This document shows, in pieces, positions 1,584 through 16,000 of a stretch of 16,000 bases of DNA. Made by a program: the position numbers and the translations under genes. The stretch's first letter is position 1, and every line of letters begins with the position of its first letter. A model generated the notes under the pieces. The model did not search any database. It was not told the DNA's origin and saw only the letters and a list, made by a program, of their open reading frames with translations. This DNA comes from Marinobacterium sp. (GTDB lineage: Bacteria > Pseudomonadota > Gammaproteobacteria > Pseudomonadales > Balneatricaceae): assembly GCA_048260865.1 (NCBI GenBank), contig JBLXGN010000003.1, positions 87,320 to 103,319 on the forward strand, in the 5' to 3' direction.

Positions 1584-1621
1584 ACGATCCCGGCGACTTA
1601 TACGTGCCGGGATCGTGTTTT
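1584..1621 (+). terminator. Rho-independent terminator candidate for the MCP gene, embedded in the 3' end of convergent ygiQ
   Basis: Perfect 11-bp stem: acgatcccggc (1584-1594) pairs with gccgggatcgt (1606-1616). The loop is 11 nt and is followed by gTTTTgg. It starts 20 nt after the MCP stop. Confidence 0.5.
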
Positions 1622-3868
1622 GGCTTTGCTGTTGCGGCCTTTGGCAGCGGGCTTGGCAGCTCCCTGCTTACGACCTTGTCCACCCGTGCTCCGTGGCGGC
1701 AAGCCTGTATGCTGAGTCAACAACTTACCCTTGGCGGCACGACCGGCCCCGGCACGGCTGGAACTGGGTGAATTTTTGCGTCGCGGGTTCACATGCTGCG
1801 CATCCTCCGGCTGGGTCGCAGGGATCAACTGTTTCTCGCCATCGCCGATCAGATCGGCACGCCCCATCTCGGTAAGTGCTTCACGCAGCAATGGCCAGTT
1901 ATCCGGGTCATGCCAACGCAGAAACGCCTTGTGCAAACGGCGCTGACGCTCCCCTTTTACGGTTTCAACCTTCTCACCGCTCTTCTTGTACGTGAGCTTG
2001 CGCAGCGGGTTGCGACCGGAATGGTACATCGCCGTGGCCGTTGCCATCGGTGAGGGGTAGAACGCCTGTACCTGATCCGCCTTGAAGCCGTTCCGTTTCA
2101 GCCAAAGTGCCAGGTTCATCATGTCTTCGTCGGATGTGCCCGGATGCGCGGCGATAAAGTACGGAATCAGGTACTGATCCTTGCCCGCTTCTTTGGAGAA
2201 CTTCTCGAACATCTTTTTGAAAGCATCATAGGTACCGATGCCCGGCTTCATCATCTTGTCGAGCACACCACGTTCAGTATGCTCAGGTGCGATCTTGAGA
2301 TAGCCACCAACATGATGGGTCACCAGCTCGCGGACGTATTCCGGGTCTTGCACGGCAAGGTCGTAACGCAGGCCCGAGGCAATCAGGATCTTGTTTACAC
2401 CCTTGAGATCACGTGCCTTGCGATAAAGCGAGGTCAGCGAACTGTGATCGGTATTGAGGTTATGACAGATGCCAGGGAACACGCACGAAGGCTTGCGGCA
2501 CGCGGCCTCGATCTCGGGGCTCTTGCACGCCAGACGGTACATATTGGCAGTAGGGCCACCCAGGTCGGAAATGACACCGGTAAAGCCCGGCACCTTGTCA
2601 CGAATTTCTTCGATCTCGTTCAGGATCGACTCGTGAGAGCGGTTCTGAATGATGCGACCTTCATGCTCGGTAATGGAGCAGAAAGTACAGCCGCCGAAGC
2701 AGCCACGCATGATGTTGACCGAGAATCGGATCATTTTGTACGCCGGTATCTCCGCCTTGCCATAGGCCGGATGCGGCACGCGCTGATACGGCAGGCCGAA
2801 GACATGGTCCATCTCCTCGGTCGTCAACGGAATCGGCGGCGGGTTGAGCCAGACTTCCTGGTCGCCATGCAGCTGCACCAGCGCACGGGCGTTACCGGGA
2901 TTGGTTTCCAGATGCAGCACACGGTTGGCATGGGCATAGAGCACCGGGTCTTTGCTGACTTTTTCGAATGACGGCAAACGAATGACCGTCTGGCTGCGAT
3001 CCAGTTTGACGCGTGGCTCGATATGCAGAATCTGCACCTCGTCCTCGGCGTCCATCTCAGCGGTTTCTCCCCCTTCACGACCGTTTTCCAGCTGACAGGC
3101 TTCCAGATCGCGAGTGTTCACATAGGGGTTGATGATCTTGTCGATCTTGCCGGGACGATCGATACGGGTGGAGTCGATCTCCATCCAGTCTTCCGGCGTA
3201 TCCTTGCGCACAAAGGCAGTGCCACGCACGTCGGTGATTTCACTGACCGGTTCGCCACGGGCGATGCGGTGCGCCACTTCAACGATGGCACGCTCGGCAT
3301 TACCGTAGAGCAGCAGATCGGCACGGGCATCCAGCAGAATTGAGCGGCGCACCTTGTCCTGCCAGTAATCGTAATGGGCAATACGACGCAACGAGCCTTC
3401 GATACCACCCAGGATGATCGGCACTTCCTTATAGGCTTCTCGGCAGCGCTGGCTATACACCAGGCTGGCACGGTCCGGTCGGCTGCCCGCTTTACCGCCC
3501 GGTGTATAGGCATCATCGGAACGGATCTTTCGATCTGCCGTGTAGCGGTTGATCATGGAATCCATGTTGCCTGCGGCAACACCGAAAAACAGATTAGGCT
3601 TGCCCAGCGCCTTGAACGGCTCGGCAGAGTTCCAGTCCGGCTGGGCAATAATGCCGACCCGGAAGCCTTGGGACTCCAGCAAACGACCGATAATGGCCAT
3701 GCCGAATGACGGGTGATCCACATAGGCATCACCTGTCACGATGATAATGTCGCAGCTGTCCCAGCCAAGCTGGTCCATCTCCTCCCGGGACATGGGCATA
3801 AAGGGTGCAGGACCAAAACATTCGGCCCAGTATTTGGTGTAATCAAAAATCGGTGTTACTGCTTGCAT
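1598..3868 (-). CDS. ygiQ: YgiQ-family (UPF0313) radical SAM protein
   Basis: The N-terminus [50 protein letters not shown] is near-identical in pattern to E. coli YgiQ. The radical SAM cluster motif is [12 protein letters not shown] place the start at the ATG at 3868 (MQAVTPIF). The track's 23-aa extension to 3937 has no support. The C-terminal tail is Lys/Arg-rich. Confidence 0.9.
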
Positions 3869-3948
3869 GGATATCCCGGAATTGAGGCGCGTGCTAGGCG
3901 CGCGAGTATAGCGCATTTTTTGAACAGTTCCGACCATCCTGCCAACGC

Positions 3949-6701: not shown

Positions 6702-6768
6702 ATAGCCTTCTTTTCGGCTGCGCCCAGGGTGCAGCCAAGTATTCACATTGCTATTCAGGAGTACCTTC

Positions 6769-8709
6769 ATGAGTAAGGACAACGTTTTGCGTGCGCCCTC
6801 CAGGCGTCGTTTTGTCCAGGGATTGGCCCTGGGTGGTCTGGCTGCCGGGTTTGGATTGAGCAGCCGCTCCCTGCTGGCTGCCAGCGTACCTGCACCTCAG
6901 AGCACACCCGTGCTGTCCGGCACAGAGTTTGATCTCAATATTGGCCACCAGTTGGTCAATTTTACAGGCAAGGAAAAGCTCGCCACGACCGTTAACGGCA
7001 GCCTGCCAGCGCCAATCCTGCGTTGGCGCGAGGGTGATCGCGTGCGTCTTAACGTGAGCAACCATCTGCAAACGGACTCATCCATTCACTGGCACGGACT
7101 GATTCTCCCGACAGAAATGGATGGCGTACCGGGACTGAGTTTTGATGGTATCGCCCCGGGCGAAACCTTCAGCTACGAGTTCGACCTAAAGCAAAGCGGT
7201 ACCTACTGGTATCACAGCCATTCAGGGTTCCAGGAACAAACCGGTCTTTATGGCGCGATCATTATCGACCCTAAAGAGCCGGAACCTTTTGATTATGACC
7301 GTGACCATGTCGTCATCTTGTCTGACTGGAGTGACACACCACCGGATCAGGTGTTTGCCAACCTGAAGAAGATGAGTCACTACTACAACAGGCGTGAACG
7401 CAACCTGACGGACGATCTCATCCCCGAAATCCAGAAGGACGGCCTCGGCGCCACCTTCTCACGCCGCCAGATGTGGGAGAAAATGCGCATGAGTGACCGT
7501 GATATCTCCGATGTCACCGGTTACACCTATACCTTCCTGATGAATGGCCAAACACCAGCCAATGGCTGGACCGGTCTGTTCACGCCGGACGAAAAAATAC
7601 GCCTTCGTGTCATCAACGCCGCTGCCATGACGTTCTTTGACCTGCGCATTCCCGGCCTGAAAATGACGGTCGTCGCCTGTGATGGCCAGTATGTCCAACC
7701 CGTCACCGTGGATGAATTCCGTATCGGGATTGCCGAAACCATCGACGTGATTGTTGAACCCCAGAGCCATCAGGCCTATGCCCTTTTCGCCCAGGCGATC
7801 GACCGCTCCGGCTATGCCTTTGGTCAACTGACACCCGACCTTAGCCTGAAAGCTACACCTCCGCCGATGGACCCCGCCCCCGAGCTAAGCCATATGGACA
7901 TGGGCATGGATATGAGTAGCGGTAGTCATGGTGAACATGGCAGTCATGCCATGCCTGCACAAGATTCACACGCCGGACACGACCTGCATGCTGGTCATGC
8001 GGCCATGTCTCACGACGCCCACCAAAGCATGGCCATGCCGGTGCCTCAATCCCATGATCAACACTCAATGCCTGGCAATGCTCATCAGGCTCACGCGGGC
8101 CACGGCAAGACACAAAGCAGCGGACATGGCATGTCGCATGGCAGCAGCCATTCAATGGAGCCGACCTACAAGGGTCACCCTCTCTCCGCCGGTATGACCG
8201 TCCACAGCGAAACTGAGTACGGCCCCCATGTAGATATGCGTGCCGAGGCTCCGCAATACCGTTTGGATGACCCAGGTGTGGGTCTGCGTAACAACGGACG
8301 CAAAGTACTGACGTATGCGGATCTGCGCAGCTTGTATCCAACGCCTGATACTCGTGAGCCCGGCCGGGAAATTGAGCTGCATTTGACCGGCAACATGAGC
8401 CGCTACATGTGGTCGATCAACGGCATTCGATATGCAGACGCCGAGCCTATCCACCTGAACTACGGTGAGCGCGTGCGCATCACGCTGGTCAACGACACCA
8501 TGATGCCGCACCCGATTCACCTGCATGGCATGTGGAGCGACCTGGAAACCGGTGATGCCACTCACTTGCCCCGCAAGCACACTCTGGTGGTTCAGCCGGG
8601 TGCCAAATTGAGCTATCTGGTCACCGCCGATGCCCGAGGCGAATGGGCGTTTCACTGCCACCTGCTCTACCACATGATGGGCATGTTCCGAAAAGTCGTG
8701 GTCAGCTGA
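6769..8709 (+). CDS. copA: Copper-resistance multicopper oxidase CopA/PcoA, Tat-exported
   Basis: The start is the ATG at 6769, preceded by aggag. The twin-arginine signal is SRRRFVQGLALGGLAAG. The four copper-ligand blocks are HWHGL, WYHSHS, HPIHLHG and HCHLLYHMMGM. A Met/His-rich insert of about 100 aa sits before the C-terminal cupredoxin domain. Confidence 0.92.
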   Translation: MSKDNVLRAPSRRRFVQGLALGGLAAGFGLSSRSLLAASVPAPQSTPVLSGTEFDLNIGHQLVNFTGKEKLATTVNGSLPAPILRWREGDRVRLNVSNHLQTDSSIHWHGLILPTEMDGVPGLSFDGIAPGETFSYEFDLKQSGTYWYHSHSGFQEQTGLYGAIIIDPKEPEPFDYDRDHVVILSDWSDTPPDQVFANLKKMSHYYNRRERNLTDDLIPEIQKDGLGATFSRRQMWEKMRMSDRDISDVTGYTYTFLMNGQTPANGWTGLFTPDEKIRLRVINAAAMTFFDLRIPGLKMTVVACDGQYVQPVTVDEFRIGIAETIDVIVEPQSHQAYALFAQAIDRSGYAFGQLTPDLSLKATPPPMDPAPELSHMDMGMDMSSGSHGEHGSHAMPAQDSHAGHDLHAGHAAMSHDAHQSMAMPVPQSHDQHSMPGNAHQAHAGHGKTQSSGHGMSHGSSHSMEPTYKGHPLSAGMTVHSETEYGPHVDMRAEAPQYRLDDPGVGLRNNGRKVLTYADLRSLYPTPDTREPGREIELHLTGNMSRYMWSINGIRYADAEPIHLNYGERVRITLVNDTMMPHPIHLHGMWSDLETGDATHLPRKHTLVVQPGAKLSYLVTADARGEWAFHCHLLYHMMGMFRKVVVS

Positions 8710-8719
8710 GGAGACACTG

Positions 8720-9421
8720 ATGAATTTGCGAAAAACTATTCCCCTGCTGGCCCTGCTAACGCCAGCACTGACTCAGGCAGCCATGACAGATGACCCTGTG
8801 CTCGGCATGCTCAATGTAAAACAGCTGGAAGCAGCCTACATCGAGGACGATGTCCAGCTGCAATGGAATGTGGAAGGCTGGCTGGGAACGGATTTGCACA
8901 AGCTGGTCCTGACCAGCGAGGGTGCTCGACTGGATGGCCGCACCAGCAGCAATGAGCTGCGCCTGTTTTACCGCCGTGCCATCAGCCCCTATTGGAATAT
9001 GGAGCTGGGCTGGCATCATGAGCCTCTTGCTCTGCAGCGTGATGATCGCGCACTGATCGGTATCAGCGGCACCGCACCCTGGTTTATCGAAACTGAGGCC
9101 ACCCTGCTGGCGGGCCCCGGCAGTGATCTGAGTGCCGAGCTTAGCCTGGAACGCGAACTAAGACTCTCTCGTCAGTGGGTACTGGCTCCGGAAATGGGTC
9201 TAACCGCACATAACTTCAGCGACAGAGCCGAACATCATGGCAGTGGCCTGAGTGACCTTGAGCTGGAGTTGCGCCTGCTGTGGGAAATACGGCCTGACGT
9301 TACCCCTTACGTTGGCGTCAGTTGGGAGCGCAAACTGGGAGATAGCGCAGATCTGGCCCGGGATACCGGACATGACGTCGAAGAAACCCAGTGGCGGCTG
9401 GGGATAAGTTTCTGGTTCTAA
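8720..9421 (+). CDS. copB: Copper resistance protein B, outer-membrane CopB/PcoB family, short form
   Basis: gaggag lies 7 nt upstream of the ATG. The signal peptide ends ALTQA. CopB-like blocks are present: QLEAAYIEDDVQLQWNVEGWLGTDLHKLVLTSEG, LFYRRAISPYWNMELGWHHEP, and a C-terminal aromatic residue (ISFWF). It starts 10 nt after copA. Confidence 0.85.
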   Translation: MNLRKTIPLLALLTPALTQAAMTDDPVLGMLNVKQLEAAYIEDDVQLQWNVEGWLGTDLHKLVLTSEGARLDGRTSSNELRLFYRRAISPYWNMELGWHHEPLALQRDDRALIGISGTAPWFIETEATLLAGPGSDLSAELSLERELRLSRQWVLAPEMGLTAHNFSDRAEHHGSGLSDLELELRLLWEIRPDVTPYVGVSWERKLGDSADLARDTGHDVEETQWRLGISFWF

Positions 9422-9432
9422 CGGAGATCAAG

Positions 9433-9870
9433 ATGAGACACACAATAAAAACCCTGATGCTCACTGCCAGTCTGTTGGCTCTGCCGGTAACGGCACATGC
9501 TCATACCAATCACTGCAAGGATACGCAGCTGGGCGACCAGATGAAGTCCCTGAAGGAAAACTTCAAGACCTATCGTCAGGCCCTGTCCGAAGAGAACTGG
9601 CAGCAGATGGCTCAAGCGCGTGCAGAAATGCAGAGTCTGGCGACTGCTGCGGGTGACGAGCAACCGCTCAAAATGCATGATCTGCCCGCTGATCAGCACC
9701 CGCAGATGATGCAGGAGTATCAACAGGGACTCGCCAAACTGAATGATCTCTTTGACCAGCTGGCTCAGGCAGAGCAGGCGCAAAATGCCGATGCAGCTGC
9801 AGACCTGGTGGGTCTTATTGGCCAGCATAGCAAGCAAAGCCATGAGTCAATGCGCAAGGACTGCGATTAA
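9433..9870 (+). CDS. Periplasmic cytochrome b562-like four-helix-bundle protein
   Basis: ATG at 9433, preceded by ggag. The signal peptide is cleaved at [10 protein letters not shown]. By eye it aligns with E. coli CybC over its length: [11 protein letters not shown] matches EDNMETLNDNL and covers the Met7 ligand position. [23 protein letters not shown] matches [33 protein letters not shown] matches TTRNAYHKKYR and covers the His102 ligand position. The track's start at 9391 overlaps copB and is rejected. Confidence 0.6.
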   Translation: [145 protein letters not shown]

Positions 9871-9938: not shown

Positions 9939-10694
9939 TCAGGGCGTTTCAAGATACTCACTGGCCCCCGGCCCCGGTTGCCACACCTGTATAAAGTCGG
10001 CACGAAACAGGAAGCCCTGTACCGCATCCACACCCAACTGTCGTGCGCGTTCAAACTGCTGCTCGTTTTCAACGCCCTCAAGAATCACCAGCTTGCCACT
10101 GGCCTTGGCGAAAATAATCAGCGCTTCGAACAACGCATCGGCGCCTGTTCCTGTCAGCCGACACAGCCAATCCCGCGCCAGTTTGACATAGTCCACACCC
10201 GCTAAAAGATCGAAGGACACCAGACTGTCCTGCGCGCCCACATCATCCAGCGCCAGTGGCAAACCGGCATCCCCAAAAGCCTGCTGCATGGCAATACTGA
10301 CCTGAGCATCAGACACTGAGCTGTTTTCAATAATTTCGACCACCGTATCAGGTCGATGCCGCAACAGCTCCACCATCGGGTGCAAAGGCTCATGCAGGAA
10401 CACTTCGAAGGCATCCTGATCAATATTGAGAAACAGATTGGGGCTATCAGGTGCGTGCAGCACCTGCAGCTGCTTCACCCGGTACTCCATTTGGAACAGG
10501 CTCAAGGGGCTGTGATGCAAGGCCCTGAACACCCGGTCAGGCGGCAAACGCTCGCCTCCATTCATGCGAAAGCGAGCCAAGGCTTCATGTCCCAGAACAC
10601 GACGATCCTGAGTTGAAACAATCGGCTGGTATTCCACACCTATACCCTTGCCGCCAAGAAAATCCAGCAGTGTTGCTGGTGAAATGTCATGCAT
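9939..10694 (-). CDS. Stand-alone EAL-domain protein, predicted c-di-GMP phosphodiesterase
   Basis: 251 aa with no sensor or GGDEF domain. The EAL catalytic set appears intact: YQPIV, HEALAR (E and R), LFLNID (N), EIIENS (E..E), LDDVGAQ (DD), VKLARD (K), LEGVENE (E), and VQGFLF (Q). Confidence 0.85.
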   Translation of the reverse strand: MHDISPATLLDFLGGKGIGVEYQPIVSTQDRRVLGHEALARFRMNGGERLPPDRVFRALHHSPLSLFQMEYRVKQLQVLHAPDSPNLFLNIDQDAFEVFLHEPLHPMVELLRHRPDTVVEIIENSSVSDAQVSIAMQQAFGDAGLPLALDDVGAQDSLVSFDLLAGVDYVKLARDWLCRLTGTGADALFEALIIFAKASGKLVILEGVENEQQFERARQLGVDAVQGFLFRADFIQVWQPGPGASEYLETP

Positions 10695-10765: not shown

Positions 10766-11377
10766 TTAAGGGGCTAACTCCTGTTGCAACTGGCGATACC
10801 AGACATCCAGCATGCGCGGATCAGCCTGACTGACCTGCACAGTTGGAAACAGTGCTTTGGCACCGGCTTCCTGCATACGGTGTGTAACCGACAGCCCAAA
10901 AGCGCAGAACTGTGGATAACTGCGATCGCCCAGTGCAAGGACGGCAAAGGGACGCTCGGCAAGGGTCGGGGAAACAGGCTCGACATCCCAGCCTATGGCG
11001 GTTTTGGGCGGATCACCCGCCCCCGTGGTACTGACTACCATCAATAGTGCCCTGTCCGGCGGCTCAACGGTTGTCAGGCGATTGAGGGGGATGGTATCGG
11101 CGCTGAAACCAGACTTGCGCATACGCTTGCGCGTTTCCTGCGCCAGCTGCCGCGCGGTACCGGTTTCGGTGCCATAGGCGATCCAGATATCCTGGCGGCC
11201 GCTGGCCTGCTCACTGCCCGCACCGGCACGACGCAAGGCCCGCCAAACCACCAGGGTATAAGCCCCCAGCGCAAGGCTCGCCAGCCAGCGTCGTTCCGTA
11301 TCAACGCCACTGAACTGCCAGACCAGCACCAGGGCCAATCCGAGCAGCACCAGCAGGCTTTTCAGTCCTATCTTCAA
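10766..11377 (-). CDS. Membrane-anchored flavodoxin-like protein (CysJ-type FMN-binding domain only)
   Basis: Two N-terminal hydrophobic helices (SLLVLLGLALVLVWQF and WLASLALGAYTLVVW) precede FMN-domain blocks: IAYGTETGTARQLAQE, LLMVVSTTGAGDPP, and FAVLALGDRSYPQFCAFG. The TTG start overlaps the upstream stop as TTGA. No FAD/NADPH domain follows. Confidence 0.75.
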   Translation of the reverse strand: MKIGLKSLLVLLGLALVLVWQFSGVDTERRWLASLALGAYTLVVWRALRRAGAGSEQASGRQDIWIAYGTETGTARQLAQETRKRMRKSGFSADTIPLNRLTTVEPPDRALLMVVSTTGAGDPPKTAIGWDVEPVSPTLAERPFAVLALGDRSYPQFCAFGLSVTHRMQEAGAKALFPTVQVSQADPRMLDVWYRQLQQELAP

Positions 11378-12186
11378 AGCGGCAGCACTTCAATCGTTGC
11401 GGTATAGCCCAAACGCTTGCTTGCCCCTTCAATTTGGGTGGAAGGCTGCTCACCGGAAACATTGAGCCAATACATGCCCGGCTCCTTGAAGGTTACGTTC
11501 AGGTTACCTTCTGCATCAGTGGTCAATTTGATTTCTTCAACACTGTCACGGTAGCGGATACCGCCACGAATCAGCACCGCTTCCAGGCCTCCAGCAGGCT
11601 GACCATCAGCCAGGAACTGGAAAGTCACCGGCTCACCGGTAAAGAGATCATTCGGGTGTGTTACCGGTACCAGTTCCAGGCCTTCGCCTGTCGGCTTGAA
11701 GGTTGTCTCGGTGGGCGCACCCTTGGTCACGAAGACCTGCATGCGGTTATCCACTTCGCTGATCTGCAGATCTTCAGCATCCTTGGGGATACGCTTGTCC
11801 ATTTTGTCGGCTTTACCGAACCAGCGCTTGGGTTCGCCATTCTGGGTATAACGCGCAAAGACTCCCTGACGGCGCACTTCCAGGGTATAGGTACCATCTT
11901 CTGTCAGTTCGACATCGAAGGTAGAACGATACTTGCCCAGCGCCTGGTTCTGCGCTTCAACCTCTGCACCGCTCGGAGACGTAATTTTCAACGCGCCCAG
12001 CTGCAGCGGGAAATGCTCGAAGTAGAACAGGCTGTTGGACACGGCACCATCAACCGTAACCCAGGTATTTTCGCCGGACAAAACAGTTGCAGAGGGCAGC
12101 ATCCAGCTACGGTGAGCCTGAGCATTCATGGCCGTTCCCAGACCCAGAGCCAACAGCGCGCAAGCGCTCAAACGTTTGATATTCAT
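11374..12186 (-). CDS. Periplasmic DUF4198-family protein (COG5266-like metal-binding Ig-like fold)
   Basis: The signal peptide MNIKRLSACALLALGLGTAMNAQA would leave a mature N-terminus HRSWMLPS. The protein is beta-rich, and the pattern GTYTLEV, GLELVPVTHPNDL, GEPVTFQFLADGQP, GMYWLNV is typical of DUF4198 as I recall it. Confidence 0.7.
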   Translation of the reverse strand: MNIKRLSACALLALGLGTAMNAQAHRSWMLPSATVLSGENTWVTVDGAVSNSLFYFEHFPLQLGALKITSPSGAEVEAQNQALGKYRSTFDVELTEDGTYTLEVRRQGVFARYTQNGEPKRWFGKADKMDKRIPKDAEDLQISEVDNRMQVFVTKGAPTETTFKPTGEGLELVPVTHPNDLFTGEPVTFQFLADGQPAGGLEAVLIRGGIRYRDSVEEIKLTTDAEGNLNVTFKEPGMYWLNVSGEQPSTQIEGASKRLGYTATIEVLPL

Positions 12187-12213
12187 GCTATTTCCTTATG
12201 TGTTTGGCGTAAT

Positions 12214-12732
12214 TCAGGGTGTAAGTTCCAGCGCAACACGACCCAGCTCATGTTCACCCTGCAACTGTTGCTGCTGGGCTGCGGTGGCGGGCCACTGGAA
12301 CGGCAGTTTCAACAGTTCTCGTCCACCCAGCTCGCGTGCGGCTTCGATCACCAGGCGGTAGTTGCCGGCAGGCAACTGGGCCAGTTTTGGATCATTCGCG
12401 CCGAAGGTCATTTCATGGGAACCGACGGGGCGAGTCGCCCCCGAGAGGCCATCAACCGGCATATCCAGTTTGCGACCGCTGTGGCGCCACCACAGACGCA
12501 AGTCCTTTAGCCACTTGGTGCCTTCGTTATCGCGCATCTCCAGGTCGTACCAGACAGACAGATCCTGCTGGTGACGACCCTTATCGTTCTCGACCCATAC
12601 CGCCACATAGGGGCGGTGGTGCTCCGCTATATCGATGGCAGGTACTTCAACTTGAACCTTGAGTTCAGCCGCCATCACCTGGCTTGCCGCTGAAGACAGC
12701 AGCACTGCCGCTGTCATCTGTTTCCATTGCAT
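12214..12732 (-). CDS. Periplasmic DUF2271-family protein with ApbE-type flavinylation motif
   Basis: The signal peptide ends QVMA/AE. DUF2271-like blocks are HRPYVAVWVEN and KWLKDLRLWWRHSGR. The motif DGLSGAT occupies residues 94-100 (nt 12433-12453). aaggag precedes the ATG. Confidence 0.8.
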   Translation of the reverse strand: MQWKQMTAAVLLSSAASQVMAAELKVQVEVPAIDIAEHHRPYVAVWVENDKGRHQQDLSVWYDLEMRDNEGTKWLKDLRLWWRHSGRKLDMPVDGLSGATRPVGSHEMTFGANDPKLAQLPAGNYRLVIEAARELGGRELLKLPFQWPATAAQQQQLQGEHELGRVALELTP

Positions 12733-12797: not shown

Positions 12798-13475
12798 TTA
12801 ATGCACCAGCAGCAGCGCCAGTAAAACCGGAACCACTACACCCAGCCCCGTTACGGGCCAGACAGAGGCTCGTTCGCGCTCATGCAGCCAGAGCACCGCC
12901 AGCCCCGTCAGGCTGAACACGAGACACACCAGTGCAAAAAAGTCGATAAACAGGCTCCAGGCCTGGCCGGCGTTGCGCCCCTTGTGCAGATCATTCAGGT
13001 AAGCGATCCAGCCACGATCGGTGGATTCGTACAGCAGCTCACCGGTTTCAAGATCCACGCTGAGCCAGGCATCTCCGCCGGGACGGGGCATGGACAGATA
13101 GACTTCAAACTCGGACCACTCCGGCGTGCGTAGAGGCACACTTAAACCCTTCTCCGTTTTGAGCCAGTTTCGCAATGACAGTGGCAACTCAGACTGCGCT
13201 TGCTGAGCCTGCTGAAGCGATTCCAGCATATGCTCAGGCAGTGCTTCTTCAATGGTGACAACGTCCTTGGAAGCCGGGATCTGACCGGCATGATTCAGCG
13301 TGAACCCTGTGACGGCGAACAGCAGCATGCCAAACAAAGCGAATGCAGAGCTGACCCAGTGCCAGGTCATAAGGCGGCGCATCCATACTGCACGAACGTG
13401 CCTCTGAGGCTTACCCTGAGACCCGGGTCGTTCGGCCGCCTCGACTTCTGCTCCAAGCTGTTGACTGTCCTTCAT
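12798..13475 (-). CDS. PepSY-associated TM-helix protein (PiuB/FoxB-like, short form)
   Basis: The TM1 context is RRLMTWHWVSSAFALFGMLLFAVTGFTLNHAG. A periplasmic PepSY-like insert of about 100 aa follows (AWLSVDLETGELLYES), then LNDLHKGRNAGQAWSLFIDFFALVCLVFSLTGLAVLWLHE and a third TM helix. The start is uncertain: ATG at 13475 or the internal ATG at 13382 (MRRLMTWHW). Confidence 0.8.
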   Translation of the reverse strand: MKDSQQLGAEVEAAERPGSQGKPQRHVRAVWMRRLMTWHWVSSAFALFGMLLFAVTGFTLNHAGQIPASKDVVTIEEALPEHMLESLQQAQQAQSELPLSLRNWLKTEKGLSVPLRTPEWSEFEVYLSMPRPGGDAWLSVDLETGELLYESTDRGWIAYLNDLHKGRNAGQAWSLFIDFFALVCLVFSLTGLAVLWLHERERASVWPVTGLGVVVPVLLALLLVH

Positions 13476-13539
13476 TTCGCGCTTGATCCCGCCGCCTCAA
13501 AAGCGAGGAGATTAGAACAATTCTCAATAATAAACAACG

Positions 13540-13566
13540 AATGATAATAATTCGTAATGATAATTT
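13540..13566. promoter_or_regulatory. Fur box 1
   Basis: gaATGATAATAATTCGTAATGATAATtt contains two TGATAAT half-sites (13542-13548 and 13558-13564). The 7-1-7 reading TGATAAT-A-ATTCGTA matches TGATAATnATTATCA at 11 of 14 positions. Confidence 0.7.
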
Positions 13567-13573
13567 ATGTAAA
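13544..13573 (-). promoter_or_regulatory. Candidate sigma70 promoter of the PepSY-DUF2271-DUF4198-FMN operon
   Basis: On the minus strand, TTTACA (plus-strand coordinates 13568-13573), an 18-bp spacer, then TATTAT (13544-13549). The spacer and the -10 element are covered by Fur box 1. Confidence 0.45.
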
Positions 13574-13617
13574 GCCCTCCTCGCTAGCTCAGGCCGATCT
13601 GCAATTATAGTAATACA

Positions 13618-13636
13618 AATGATAATAATTATTAGT
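13618..13636. promoter_or_regulatory. Fur box 2
   Basis: TGATAAT-A-ATTATTA (13620-13634) matches the 7-1-7 Fur consensus TGATAATnATTATCA at 13 of 14 positions. It lies about 110 nt upstream of the receptor start and overlaps a possible -10 element, GATAAT (13621-13626). Confidence 0.75.
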
Positions 13637-13745
13637 ATTGCTTTGATGTAAACAAATCTTTACCCTTCTCCGCGATTTCAACTCACTGCTGTTACTAGCG
13701 GACAACGACTACAAAACTATAACCACAAGGATAAGGAACTGAATC

Positions 13746-16000
13746 GTGAGGATTTCTCCCCAACGCGTCACGGCGTTTGCGCTGACCAGTGCCATTGCGG
13801 CCACCTTTGCACAGGCCTCTCAAGCAGAATCCAGGAACACTGTTGATCAGGACACTCTGGTCATCAGCGCAGCCGGTATCGAACAGAAACTGATCGATGC
13901 TCCTGCTTCCATCACCGTGATTAGTCAGGAAGAGCTCAGGAAGAAGCCTTATCTCACTCTGCTGGACGCCGTGCGTGAAGTAGAAGGTGTGGATGTGGGT
14001 GAAACCACTGATAAAACAGGCCAGGGCGGTATCAGCATCCGTGGTATGGGTGCCGACTACACGCTGATCCTGATCGACGGCAAGCGTCAGAACAACATCG
14101 GTGACATTTATCCGAACAACTTCGGCGGTAACCAGTTCAATCATATTCCGCCCAAGGAGATGATCGAGCGTATCGAGATCATCCGTGGCCCAGCGTCCAC
14201 GCTTTACGGCGCCGATGCACTGGGCGGCGTGATTAATATCATCACAAAGAAAGTCGGCAACGAGTGGCACGGCTCTGTATCCCACAGCCGTACCATCGAA
14301 TCCAACGATGATTTCGGTAATGACCAGACCACCGACTTTGCCATCAGCGGCCCTATGATCGAAGGCAAGCTGGGCTTGAATCTGCGCGGCAGCCTGTACG
14401 AGCGTGACGCGTCCACTCCCAGCTTCGATGACATCACCGATCCCAATGGAGATCTGGTTCCCCGCTCACTGGGTTACGGCTCTGGCGGCAAGACTGTGGA
14501 TAACGAAAACCGTAACCTGGGTATGCGCCTGGACTTCAAACCGGCCGACAACCAACTGCTGATGTTCGACATCGAAACCTCGCAGCAGGAATACGATAAC
14601 GTCCCGGTAGACGGTTCCAACCCGCTGGGTACCACCGACAGCGTCAACCGCCTTCCCCGTGCCGGCTACGCGCTGGAGCAGGAGTTCAAGCGTGACCAGA
14701 TGTCCCTGACCCATGAAGGCACCTGGGGCTTCGGTCATAGCACCATCAGCCTGCACCACATTGAAACCAGCAACGATGGCCGCACCCTGCCGCTGACCGC
14801 AACAGAACGACTGTTGTACGAAGAAATGGTCGCAAACGGTGCCATCGATGCTGAAATTGAAGCCACCTTCCTGCCACGCCAGAAGCGTGTTCTGGAAACC
14901 CGTCAGACCACACTGGATGTAAAATTCGACAGCCAGGTGGGTGATCATTGGCTGGTGTACGGTGGTCAGTATGTCGATGCCGAAATGGAAGACGGTACCT
15001 TCGGCATGAACGGCAGCGGCTTTGCCTCCGGCAGTGTACAGGAGCACAAGCAGTGGTCCCTGTTCGCCGAAGACAACTGGTCATTGACCAACAGCCTGAC
15101 CCTGACCGGCGGTCTGCGCTATGACGATCACAACATTTTCGGCGGTCATGTCAGCCCCCGCGTTTATGCCAACTGGGCCGTTTCACCTGAGTGGACACTG
15201 AAAGGTGGCGTCAGCACCGGCTACAAGGCACCTCAGGCCAGCGATCTGTATGACGGCATTACCGGCTTTGGTGGCCAGGGCACCCGTCCTTTCCATGGCA
15301 CACCGGACCTGGAACCGGAAACCAGTGTGAACAGCGAACTGGCGGTGTACTACAGCCACCCGGAAGGTCACAACTTCAACGCCACCCTGTTCTCCAACAA
15401 GTTCAAGGACAAGATCGAGAGCGGCGCGGGTATCTACCACTGTGATGATCCGGCGGCCAATGCTGGCAACTGTGCAAACCTTGCGTCCGAGTGGAATGAG
15501 ATTCTGGGTGACGGCTACCAGTTCAGTCAGCTGGTCAATATCGACAGTGCCCAGATTGACGGTCTGGAACTGGCCGGTAAGCTGCAGCTGACGCCGACCC
15601 TGAACCTGCGTGCCAACTACACGTATACCGATGCCCGTATCACCAGCGGCGCTAACAAGGGTGAACCGCTTAGCGGCACAGCCAAACATATGGCTAACGC
15701 CACGCTGAGCTGGCAGGCGACATCGAAGTTCAACACCTTCCTGACAGCAGAAATGCGCTCCAAGCGCTTCACCAGCAGCCCGCGCGGCTGGAACTCTGAT
15801 GTGGAATACCCGGAGTACTACAAGGACTATACCGTCTATCACCTGGGTGCCAGCTATGAAGTCACACCCAACTTCGTGCTGAATGCTCGTATCAACAACC
15901 TGCTGGACGAAGACTTCACCAGCTACAAGACTGTGTTCACCACTGAAGATGGTGGCGCCAGTTGGGATCCCAACTACATCGACGATTACAACGTCAAAGC
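13746..16000 (+). CDS. TonB-dependent siderophore receptor (CirA/FepA/IrgA-like), 3'-truncated by the window edge
   Basis: This gene is absent from the ORF track. My own translation from the GTG at 13746 (aagga 8 nt upstream) stays open to base 16000. The signal peptide is MRISPQRVTAFALTSAIAATFAQA and the TonB box is DTLVISA. Plug motifs are APASITVISQEEL, GISIRGMGADYTLILIDGKRQN, and IERIEIIRGPASTLYGADALGGVINIITKK. Barrel motifs are GGLRYDDH, LKGGVSTGYKAPQASDLY, PDLEPETS, and LRANYTYTDA. Confidence 0.9.
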   Translation, partial: MRISPQRVTAFALTSAIAATFAQASQAESRNTVDQDTLVISAAGIEQKLIDAPASITVISQEELRKKPYLTLLDAVREVEGVDVGETTDKTGQGGISIRGMGADYTLILIDGKRQNNIGDIYPNNFGGNQFNHIPPKEMIERIEIIRGPASTLYGADALGGVINIITKKVGNEWHGSVSHSRTIESNDDFGNDQTTDFAISGPMIEGKLGLNLRGSLYERDASTPSFDDITDPNGDLVPRSLGYGSGGKTVDNENRNLGMRLDFKPADNQLLMFDIETSQQEYDNVPVDGSNPLGTTDSVNRLPRAGYALEQEFKRDQMSLTHEGTWGFGHSTISLHHIETSNDGRTLPLTATERLLYEEMVANGAIDAEIEATFLPRQKRVLETRQTTLDVKFDSQVGDHWLVYGGQYVDAEMEDGTFGMNGSGFASGSVQEHKQWSLFAEDNWSLTNSLTLTGGLRYDDHNIFGGHVSPRVYANWAVSPEWTLKGGVSTGYKAPQASDLYDGITGFGGQGTRPFHGTPDLEPETSVNSELAVYYSHPEGHNFNATLFSNKFKDKIESGAGIYHCDDPAANAGNCANLASEWNEILGDGYQFSQLVNIDSAQIDGLELAGKLQLTPTLNLRANYTYTDARITSGANKGEPLSGTAKHMANATLSWQATSKFNTFLTAEMRSKRFTSSPRGWNSDVEYPEYYKDYTVYHLGASYEVTPNFVLNARINNLLDEDFTSYKTVFTTEDGGASWDPNYIDDYNVK

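Follow-up and report, generated by a model that had tools for sequence, protein, structure and literature searches.

A DUF2271 protein encoded by a Marinobacterium sp. raises the question of whether it carries a covalently bound flavin and, if it does, which enzyme attaches it. The protein displays a complete ApbE-type flavinylation motif, and no apbE gene accompanies it. The gene was analysed in its surroundings, a stretch of DNA of 16 kb that is referred to throughout as the window, and the locus was compared with related loci from other bacteria.

The DUF2271 protein and its flavinylation motif

The gene lies on the minus strand at 12214..12732 and encodes a predicted periplasmic beta-sandwich protein of 172 aa. 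As previously proposed, the product belongs to the DUF2271 family (PF10029, E 4.1e-48); it scores 163 bits against a gathering cut-off of 27.3, and the match spans profile positions 2-135 of 136. The sequence AAGGAG is found 6 nt upstream of the ATG, and the start codon is therefore well supported. Inspection of the N-terminus also upheld the earlier assignment of a signal peptide, predicted to cover residues 1-21 (12670-12732, minus strand): the sequence MQWKQMTAAVLLSSAASQVMA, followed by AE, presents K4, hydrophobic residues at 7-17 and V-M-A before a likely cleavage site preceding A22. An AlphaFold2 model of the protein (pLDDT 92) shows an all-beta core with two short helices, residues 1-20 having low pLDDT. 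No solved structure close to the protein was found, either by sequence or by fold. The exact sequence of the protein had no match on record. About 2,000 homologues were retrieved, the closest named ones being from Marinobacterium, and the best genome matches were GCA_041595975.1 (96%) and M. stanieri DSM 7027 (83%).

Codon reading places the motif D94-G-L-S-G-A-T100 at 12433..12453 on the minus strand, from the gat codon of Asp94 (12451-12453) to the act codon of Thr100 (12433-12435), exactly where the preliminary description had located it. Residues 94-100, DGLSGAT, match D-x-x-[S/T]-G-A-[S/T], and Thr100 is the predicted FMN phosphoester acceptor. When the six-frame translation of the whole 16-kb window was searched with D..[ST]GA[ST], this was the single match. 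In the AlphaFold2 model, the motif comes after helix 79-84 and before strand 104-111, in a loop and short strand that are modelled with confidence. Three plus-strand open reading frames run antisense over the motif (11434-12510, 12336-12662 and 12362-12574); they were rejected as artefacts of GC-rich coding sequence.

The ApbE-type nature of the motif had been claimed from its letters, and it is borne out by alignment, since DGLSGAT falls on the conserved flavinylation site of DUF2271. It had also been proposed to check whether the motif Thr is conserved across DUF2271 homologues. It is, at 90% or more in diverse samples and in all 83 loci compared. Among 150 representatives at 50% identity, the family motif reads D-[GA]-[VIL]-[ST]-[GSA]-[AP]-T-[RK], with Asp in 128 of the 141 rows that have no gap at its position and Thr or Ser at the final position in 128 of 142, and many of the rows without the motif Asp or Thr/Ser are fragments. 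In a curated alignment of 58 DUF2271 sequences, the positions of D94 and T100 are each at least 90% conserved. In the best 120 of the approximately 2,000 homologues, the motif-terminal AT is invariant (92 sequences with [ST]GAT and 28 with S[AS]AT). The 83 loci include 36 without a linked apbE, and in all 36 both the motif Asp and the Thr are kept; these loci span genera in which DUF2271 shares only about 51-63% identity with the window protein.

The Gly and the Ala of the motif differ between DUF2271 homologues that all keep the Thr. The variant SSAT occurs in M. stanieri (locus L003, 10001-10516), SAAT in many Stutzerimonas and Aquimonas, and SGPT or S[ST]PT in some Alpha- and Betaproteobacteria. 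Variation at Gly or Ala was noted in L003, L071, L055, P0002 and 27 other close homologues. In another ApbE substrate, a Gly-to-Ala exchange is reported to lower flavinylation (PMC12052999).

The flavinylation reading is supported yet already known, and re-derives a DUF2271 result of 2021. DUF2271 was identified as an ApbE substrate with a conserved [S/T]GA[S/T] motif by Méheust et al. 2021 in eLife (PMC8238504) and is treated as an established flavinylated domain in later work (PMC11334425). The homologue from Amantichitinum ursilacus (WP_053936890.1) is likewise a secreted PF10029 protein of about 170 aa with the conserved [S/T]GA[S/T] site. It was flavinylated on co-expression with its ApbE, as detected by in-gel UV fluorescence, and the Thr-to-Ala substitution that served as control abolished the modification, this Thr being the sole ApbE target (PMC8238504). 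The co-expression and Thr-to-Ala experiment suggested in the preliminary description has thus essentially been done on this homologue (PMC8238504). The two clusters differ in that apbE lies within that of A. ursilacus and is absent from that of the window.

The motif D-x-x-[S/T]-G-A-[S/T] is also common to DUF2271 and to NqrC/RnfG (FMN_bind) and NqrB/RnfD, in which FMN is carried on the final Thr. Like DUF2271, these proteins are extracytosolic and take part in electron relay. The DUF2271 beta-sandwich, however, is a fold unrelated to theirs (PMC11334425), and DUF2271 is not an ion-pump subunit.

The PepSY-like cluster and its iron-related surroundings

DUF2271 is the second gene of a minus-strand cluster that encodes, in this order, PepSY_TM_like_2, DUF2271, DUF4198 and a membrane-anchored flavodoxin. 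This is a typical "PepSY-like" cluster. Méheust et al. catalogued 3220 such clusters, of which 2833 contain DUF2271 and 1500 contain DUF4198; they ascribed to them a proposed role in iron reduction and assimilation on the grounds of Fur repression in Shewanella and Caulobacter and of links to VIT1 and TonB receptors (PMC8238504).

The first gene of the operon (12798..13475, minus strand) encodes a PepSY_TM_like_2 membrane protein (PF16357, E 4.5e-76; PF03929, E 1.4e-10). Across 83 homologues, H39, H164 and H225 are at least 98% conserved, H62 88% and H198 78%. From this conservation, which is as expected for bis-His sites of the FoxB type, we infer that the protein binds haem, and it is presumed to be a transmembrane haem electron conduit. 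FoxB is a di-haem PepSY-family protein with bis-His haem sites (PMC11334425); FoxB of P. aeruginosa (PDB 7ABW) and VciB of V. cholerae are PepSY-family periplasmic ferric/siderophore reductases. The window protein belongs to the Pfam clan of FoxB and VciB and resembles them in its conserved His residues and in the extracytosolic Fe(III) reduction proposed for it, but FoxB and VciB function without a flavinylated DUF2271 partner. Comparison with the solved FoxB structure (7ABW) gave no detectable sequence match, and searches with the PepSY-like and DUF4198 proteins returned no meaningful PDB sequence matches.

The DUF4198 gene (11374..12186, minus strand; PF10670, E 4.1e-54) encodes a secreted protein of 270 aa. 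It adjoins DUF2271, in the same gene order, in 82 of the 82 related loci. The window copy is intact, whereas in GCA_041595975.1 (L001, 1576-2388) the gene is split into two called open reading frames of 149 and 118 aa, a sign of a possible frameshift, assembly error or pseudogene in that genome.

The fourth gene (10766..11377, minus strand) encodes a membrane-anchored flavodoxin-domain protein of 203 aa (Flavodoxin_1, PF00258, E 6.9e-22) with two N-terminal hydrophobic segments forming a TM hairpin. Its domain is similar to the FMN domains in CPR and CysJ, and the protein is presumed to be the cytoplasmic electron-input module. The equivalent gene in 58 of the 82 related loci encodes a fusion of flavodoxin and FNR (FAD/NAD) domains of 460-570 aa, similar to diflavin reductases. 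The window protein has Flavodoxin_1 only and is missing the NAD(P)H-binding module PF00175. This flavodoxin-only short form was found only in L001-L007, L009, L042 and L056, all of which come from Marinobacterium, Marinobacter or Bermanella, and no FNR module is encoded within 10 kb of it.

A stand-alone EAL-domain gene of 251 aa (9939..10694, minus strand; PF00563, E 7.3e-33) comes next after the flavodoxin gene, which has the same orientation and is separated from it by 71 bp, and may be co-transcribed with the iron-reduction operon. It occupies this position in five Marinobacterium loci (L001 and L003-L006). We tentatively suggest, as something possible rather than probable, that the PepSY-DUF2271-DUF4198 system of Marinobacterium, Marinobacter and Bermanella is a minimal variant in its own right, which relies on genes outside the cluster for its maturation as well as for electron input, and in which the EAL protein might couple periplasmic iron reduction to c-di-GMP turnover. 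Such a variant has neither apbE nor an NAD(P)H-binding FNR module, and its flavodoxin would need an unlinked reductase. The short-form flavodoxin partner is a mildly novel aspect of the locus that lies outside the original finding.

Clusters with the same core, that is a PepSY-like protein, DUF2271, DUF4198 and a partner of the flavin reductase type, are known from Caulobacter (CCNA_03155-03159), from Shewanella oneidensis (a Fur-repressed cluster) and from Alteromonas (MASE_17430/17435). They are characterised by iron/Fur regulation and by association with TonB-dependent receptors. The Caulobacter cluster is Fur-regulated and is required for fitness when EDTA makes iron limiting (PMC12004947), and expression of the homologous Alteromonas genes rises under iron limitation (PMC7190382). 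Compared with these systems, the Marinobacterium version has no apbE and no FAD/NAD module, and has a 203-aa flavodoxin with the EAL gene next to it.

The divergent intergenic region upstream of the operon (13476-13745) is 270 bp long and contains 63% A+T, versus 44% for the window. On its other side a TonB-dependent outer-membrane receptor is encoded on the plus strand (13746..16000); its translation opens with a signal peptide, continues with sequence resembling a plug and a barrel, and is cut off by the window end. At the same position, L002 encodes a protein with PF07715 and PF00593, and exbB/exbD/tonB lie upstream of the same locus in M. sediminicola. Fur-box-like sites are present in the intergenic region at 13540..13637. 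The 9-mer AATGATAAT occurs there as three exact copies, at 13540, 13556 and 13618, where 0.06 would be expected, and TGATAATAATTATTA at 13620-13634 corresponds to a 7-1-7 Fur box with 1 mismatch. These Fur-box-like matches are the best in the window and overlap a minus-strand promoter-like site of the PepSY operon (13573..13544). The full 19-bp E. coli Fur consensus gave no match with 3 mismatches or fewer, the best site, at 13621, having 4, and was less informative than the 9-mers and the 7-1-7 form. The link to iron is drawn because of the Fur-box-like sites, the TonB-dependent receptor, the exbB/exbD/tonB genes of M. sediminicola and the iron regulation of homologous clusters. Judged from sequence, the cluster, the divergent receptor and the Fur-box-like sites together point to periplasmic ferric-iron reduction.

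Several other features of the window were recorded. Next to the iron cluster, at 6748-9870 on the plus strand, lies a copper-resistance cluster made up of copA, copB and a gene for a secreted cytochrome b562-like protein, with synteny preserved in L001 and L002. The multicopper oxidase encoded by its copA contains a long insert, rich in His and Met, at about residues 370-470. The gene at 5-1564 on the plus strand specifies a methyl-accepting chemotaxis protein that carries a nitrate/nitrite-sensing (NIT) domain; the NIT match begins at profile position 91, so the window start probably truncates this gene. A YgiQ-type radical SAM protein (1598-3937, minus strand; Radical_SAM_N, Radical_SAM and DUF3362) ends in a long tail rich in Lys, Arg, Ala and Gly over about the last 90 residues. 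No Rfam matches were found in the window.

Distribution of apbE and the source of the modifying enzyme

The statement that no apbE lies nearby holds for the window. All 13 genes carry other Pfam assignments, and an HMM built from E. coli ApbE and 47 cluster ApbEs, with regions trimmed to the alignment of E. coli ApbE, gave no match in any window reading frame of at least 100 aa. In order to place this absence, 82 related loci, obtained with a locus query of 22 closer sequences, were compared with flanks of up to 10 kb where the contig allowed. In 47 of them apbE lies directly after DUF4198, and these 47 loci all belong to Burkholderiales, Xanthomonadales, Nevskiales, Steroidobacter or Alphaproteobacteria. 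The remaining 35 are without apbE and come from Pseudomonadales/Oceanospirillales, except for two unclassified MAGs and one Bordetella locus, in which the contig ends right after DUF4198. The apbE-less genera are Marinobacterium (7 loci), Stutzerimonas, Pseudomonas, Azotobacter, Thiopseudomonas, Marinobacter, Bermanella and Thalassolituus, and apbE is absent within 10 kb of the cluster in all seven Marinobacterium loci.

The simplest reading of this distribution is that lineages with another ApbE, one that serves NQR/RNF, do without a copy in the cluster. NQR/RNF depend on ApbE and are generally present in marine gammaproteobacteria. In E. coli, apbE/ftp is located apart from its Rsx substrates, between ada and ompC. 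This position supports the reading, as do three published observations: Azotobacter has nqrABCDEF and two rnf operons (PMC4465626); cluster-linked apbE, the 'orphan apbE', is found particularly in genomes without another substrate (PMC8238504); and ApbE requires only the 7-residue D-x-x-[S/T]-G-A-[S/T] motif (PMC12052999), so that an unlinked ApbE can act. The earlier idea of an enzyme encoded elsewhere fits both the way in which the presence and absence of apbE split by taxonomy and the recognition of the bare motif by ApbE. The word 'Marinobacterium' is absent from the supplementary files of Méheust et al. 2021 (PMC8238504), and a search of the literature on Marinobacterium together with nqr, apbE or rnf found nothing relevant.

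Together, these observations lead us to favour, with a probability of about 0.8, the reading that Thr100 is covalently flavinylated and that DUF2271 is the electron carrier of a Fur-regulated PepSY-like iron-reduction system, its ApbE acting in trans and being most likely that of Na+-NQR/RNF. An unlikely alternative on the last point is that flavinylation depends on a second, dedicated apbE paralogue elsewhere in the genome and not on the NQR/RNF housekeeping enzyme. Many genomes do encode multiple ApbEs (PMC8238504), and with apbE inside the cluster in 47 of 82 related loci a translocated copy is conceivable. However, no apbE lies within 10 kb in the seven Marinobacterium loci or in nearly all those of Pseudomonadales/Oceanospirillales, for which loss in the presence of another ApbE is the simpler account, and the recognition of a minimal motif by ApbE is not partner-specific (PMC12052999).

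That DUF2271 is unflavinylated in this lineage, the motif being kept for structure or for non-covalent binding of flavin or metal and apbE having been lost as dispensable, is much less probable still. The lack of apbE in the window and in every Marinobacterium locus would agree with it, and the FAD/NAD module is also missing, which suggests a reduced system. Against it stand the retention of the Thr and the Asp in 36 of 36 apbE-less loci despite protein identities of about 51-63%, the fully canonical window motif (SGAT) and the general occurrence of NQR/RNF in marine gammaproteobacteria, with Azotobacter as the published case. Finally, a chance match without function has a negligible probability: a degenerate motif of 5 positions arises at about 7e-6 per residue, with a handful expected per genome, but the number of matches expected from amino-acid composition is 0.03 for the 13 window proteins together and 0.001 for the DUF2271 protein, and chance is effectively refuted because the motif aligns exactly with the conserved, experimentally validated site of the family.

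A proposed electron path and its meaning

The favoured reading, flavinylation of Thr100 by an unlinked ApbE, can be extended to a putative path for electrons from the cytoplasm to iron. After Sec export of DUF2271, ApbE would transfer FMN from FAD to Thr100 by a phosphoester bond; the enzyme, encoded elsewhere, would act in trans and would most likely be the one that matures Na+-NQR and/or RNF. Electrons would enter at the cytoplasmic side through the membrane-anchored flavodoxin-domain protein, and would cross the membrane via the His-ligated haems of PepSY_TM_like_2. In the periplasm these haems would reduce the FMN bound to DUF2271, which in turn would pass electrons to Fe(III) or to a ferric chelate taken up through the neighbouring TonB-dependent receptor. 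DUF4198 would be a likely periplasmic partner that binds metal or substrate.

As a discovery, the result carries little weight, since DUF2271 as an ApbE substrate in PepSY-like, iron-associated clusters was published in 2021 (PMC8238504). The modest addition made here is that the presence of apbE inside the cluster tracks taxonomy, as expected if lineages with NQR/RNF reuse their housekeeping ApbE. The value for annotation is that the window protein can be described as a periplasmic electron carrier, predicted to be covalently flavinylated, that serves a predicted Fur-regulated ferric-reduction system.
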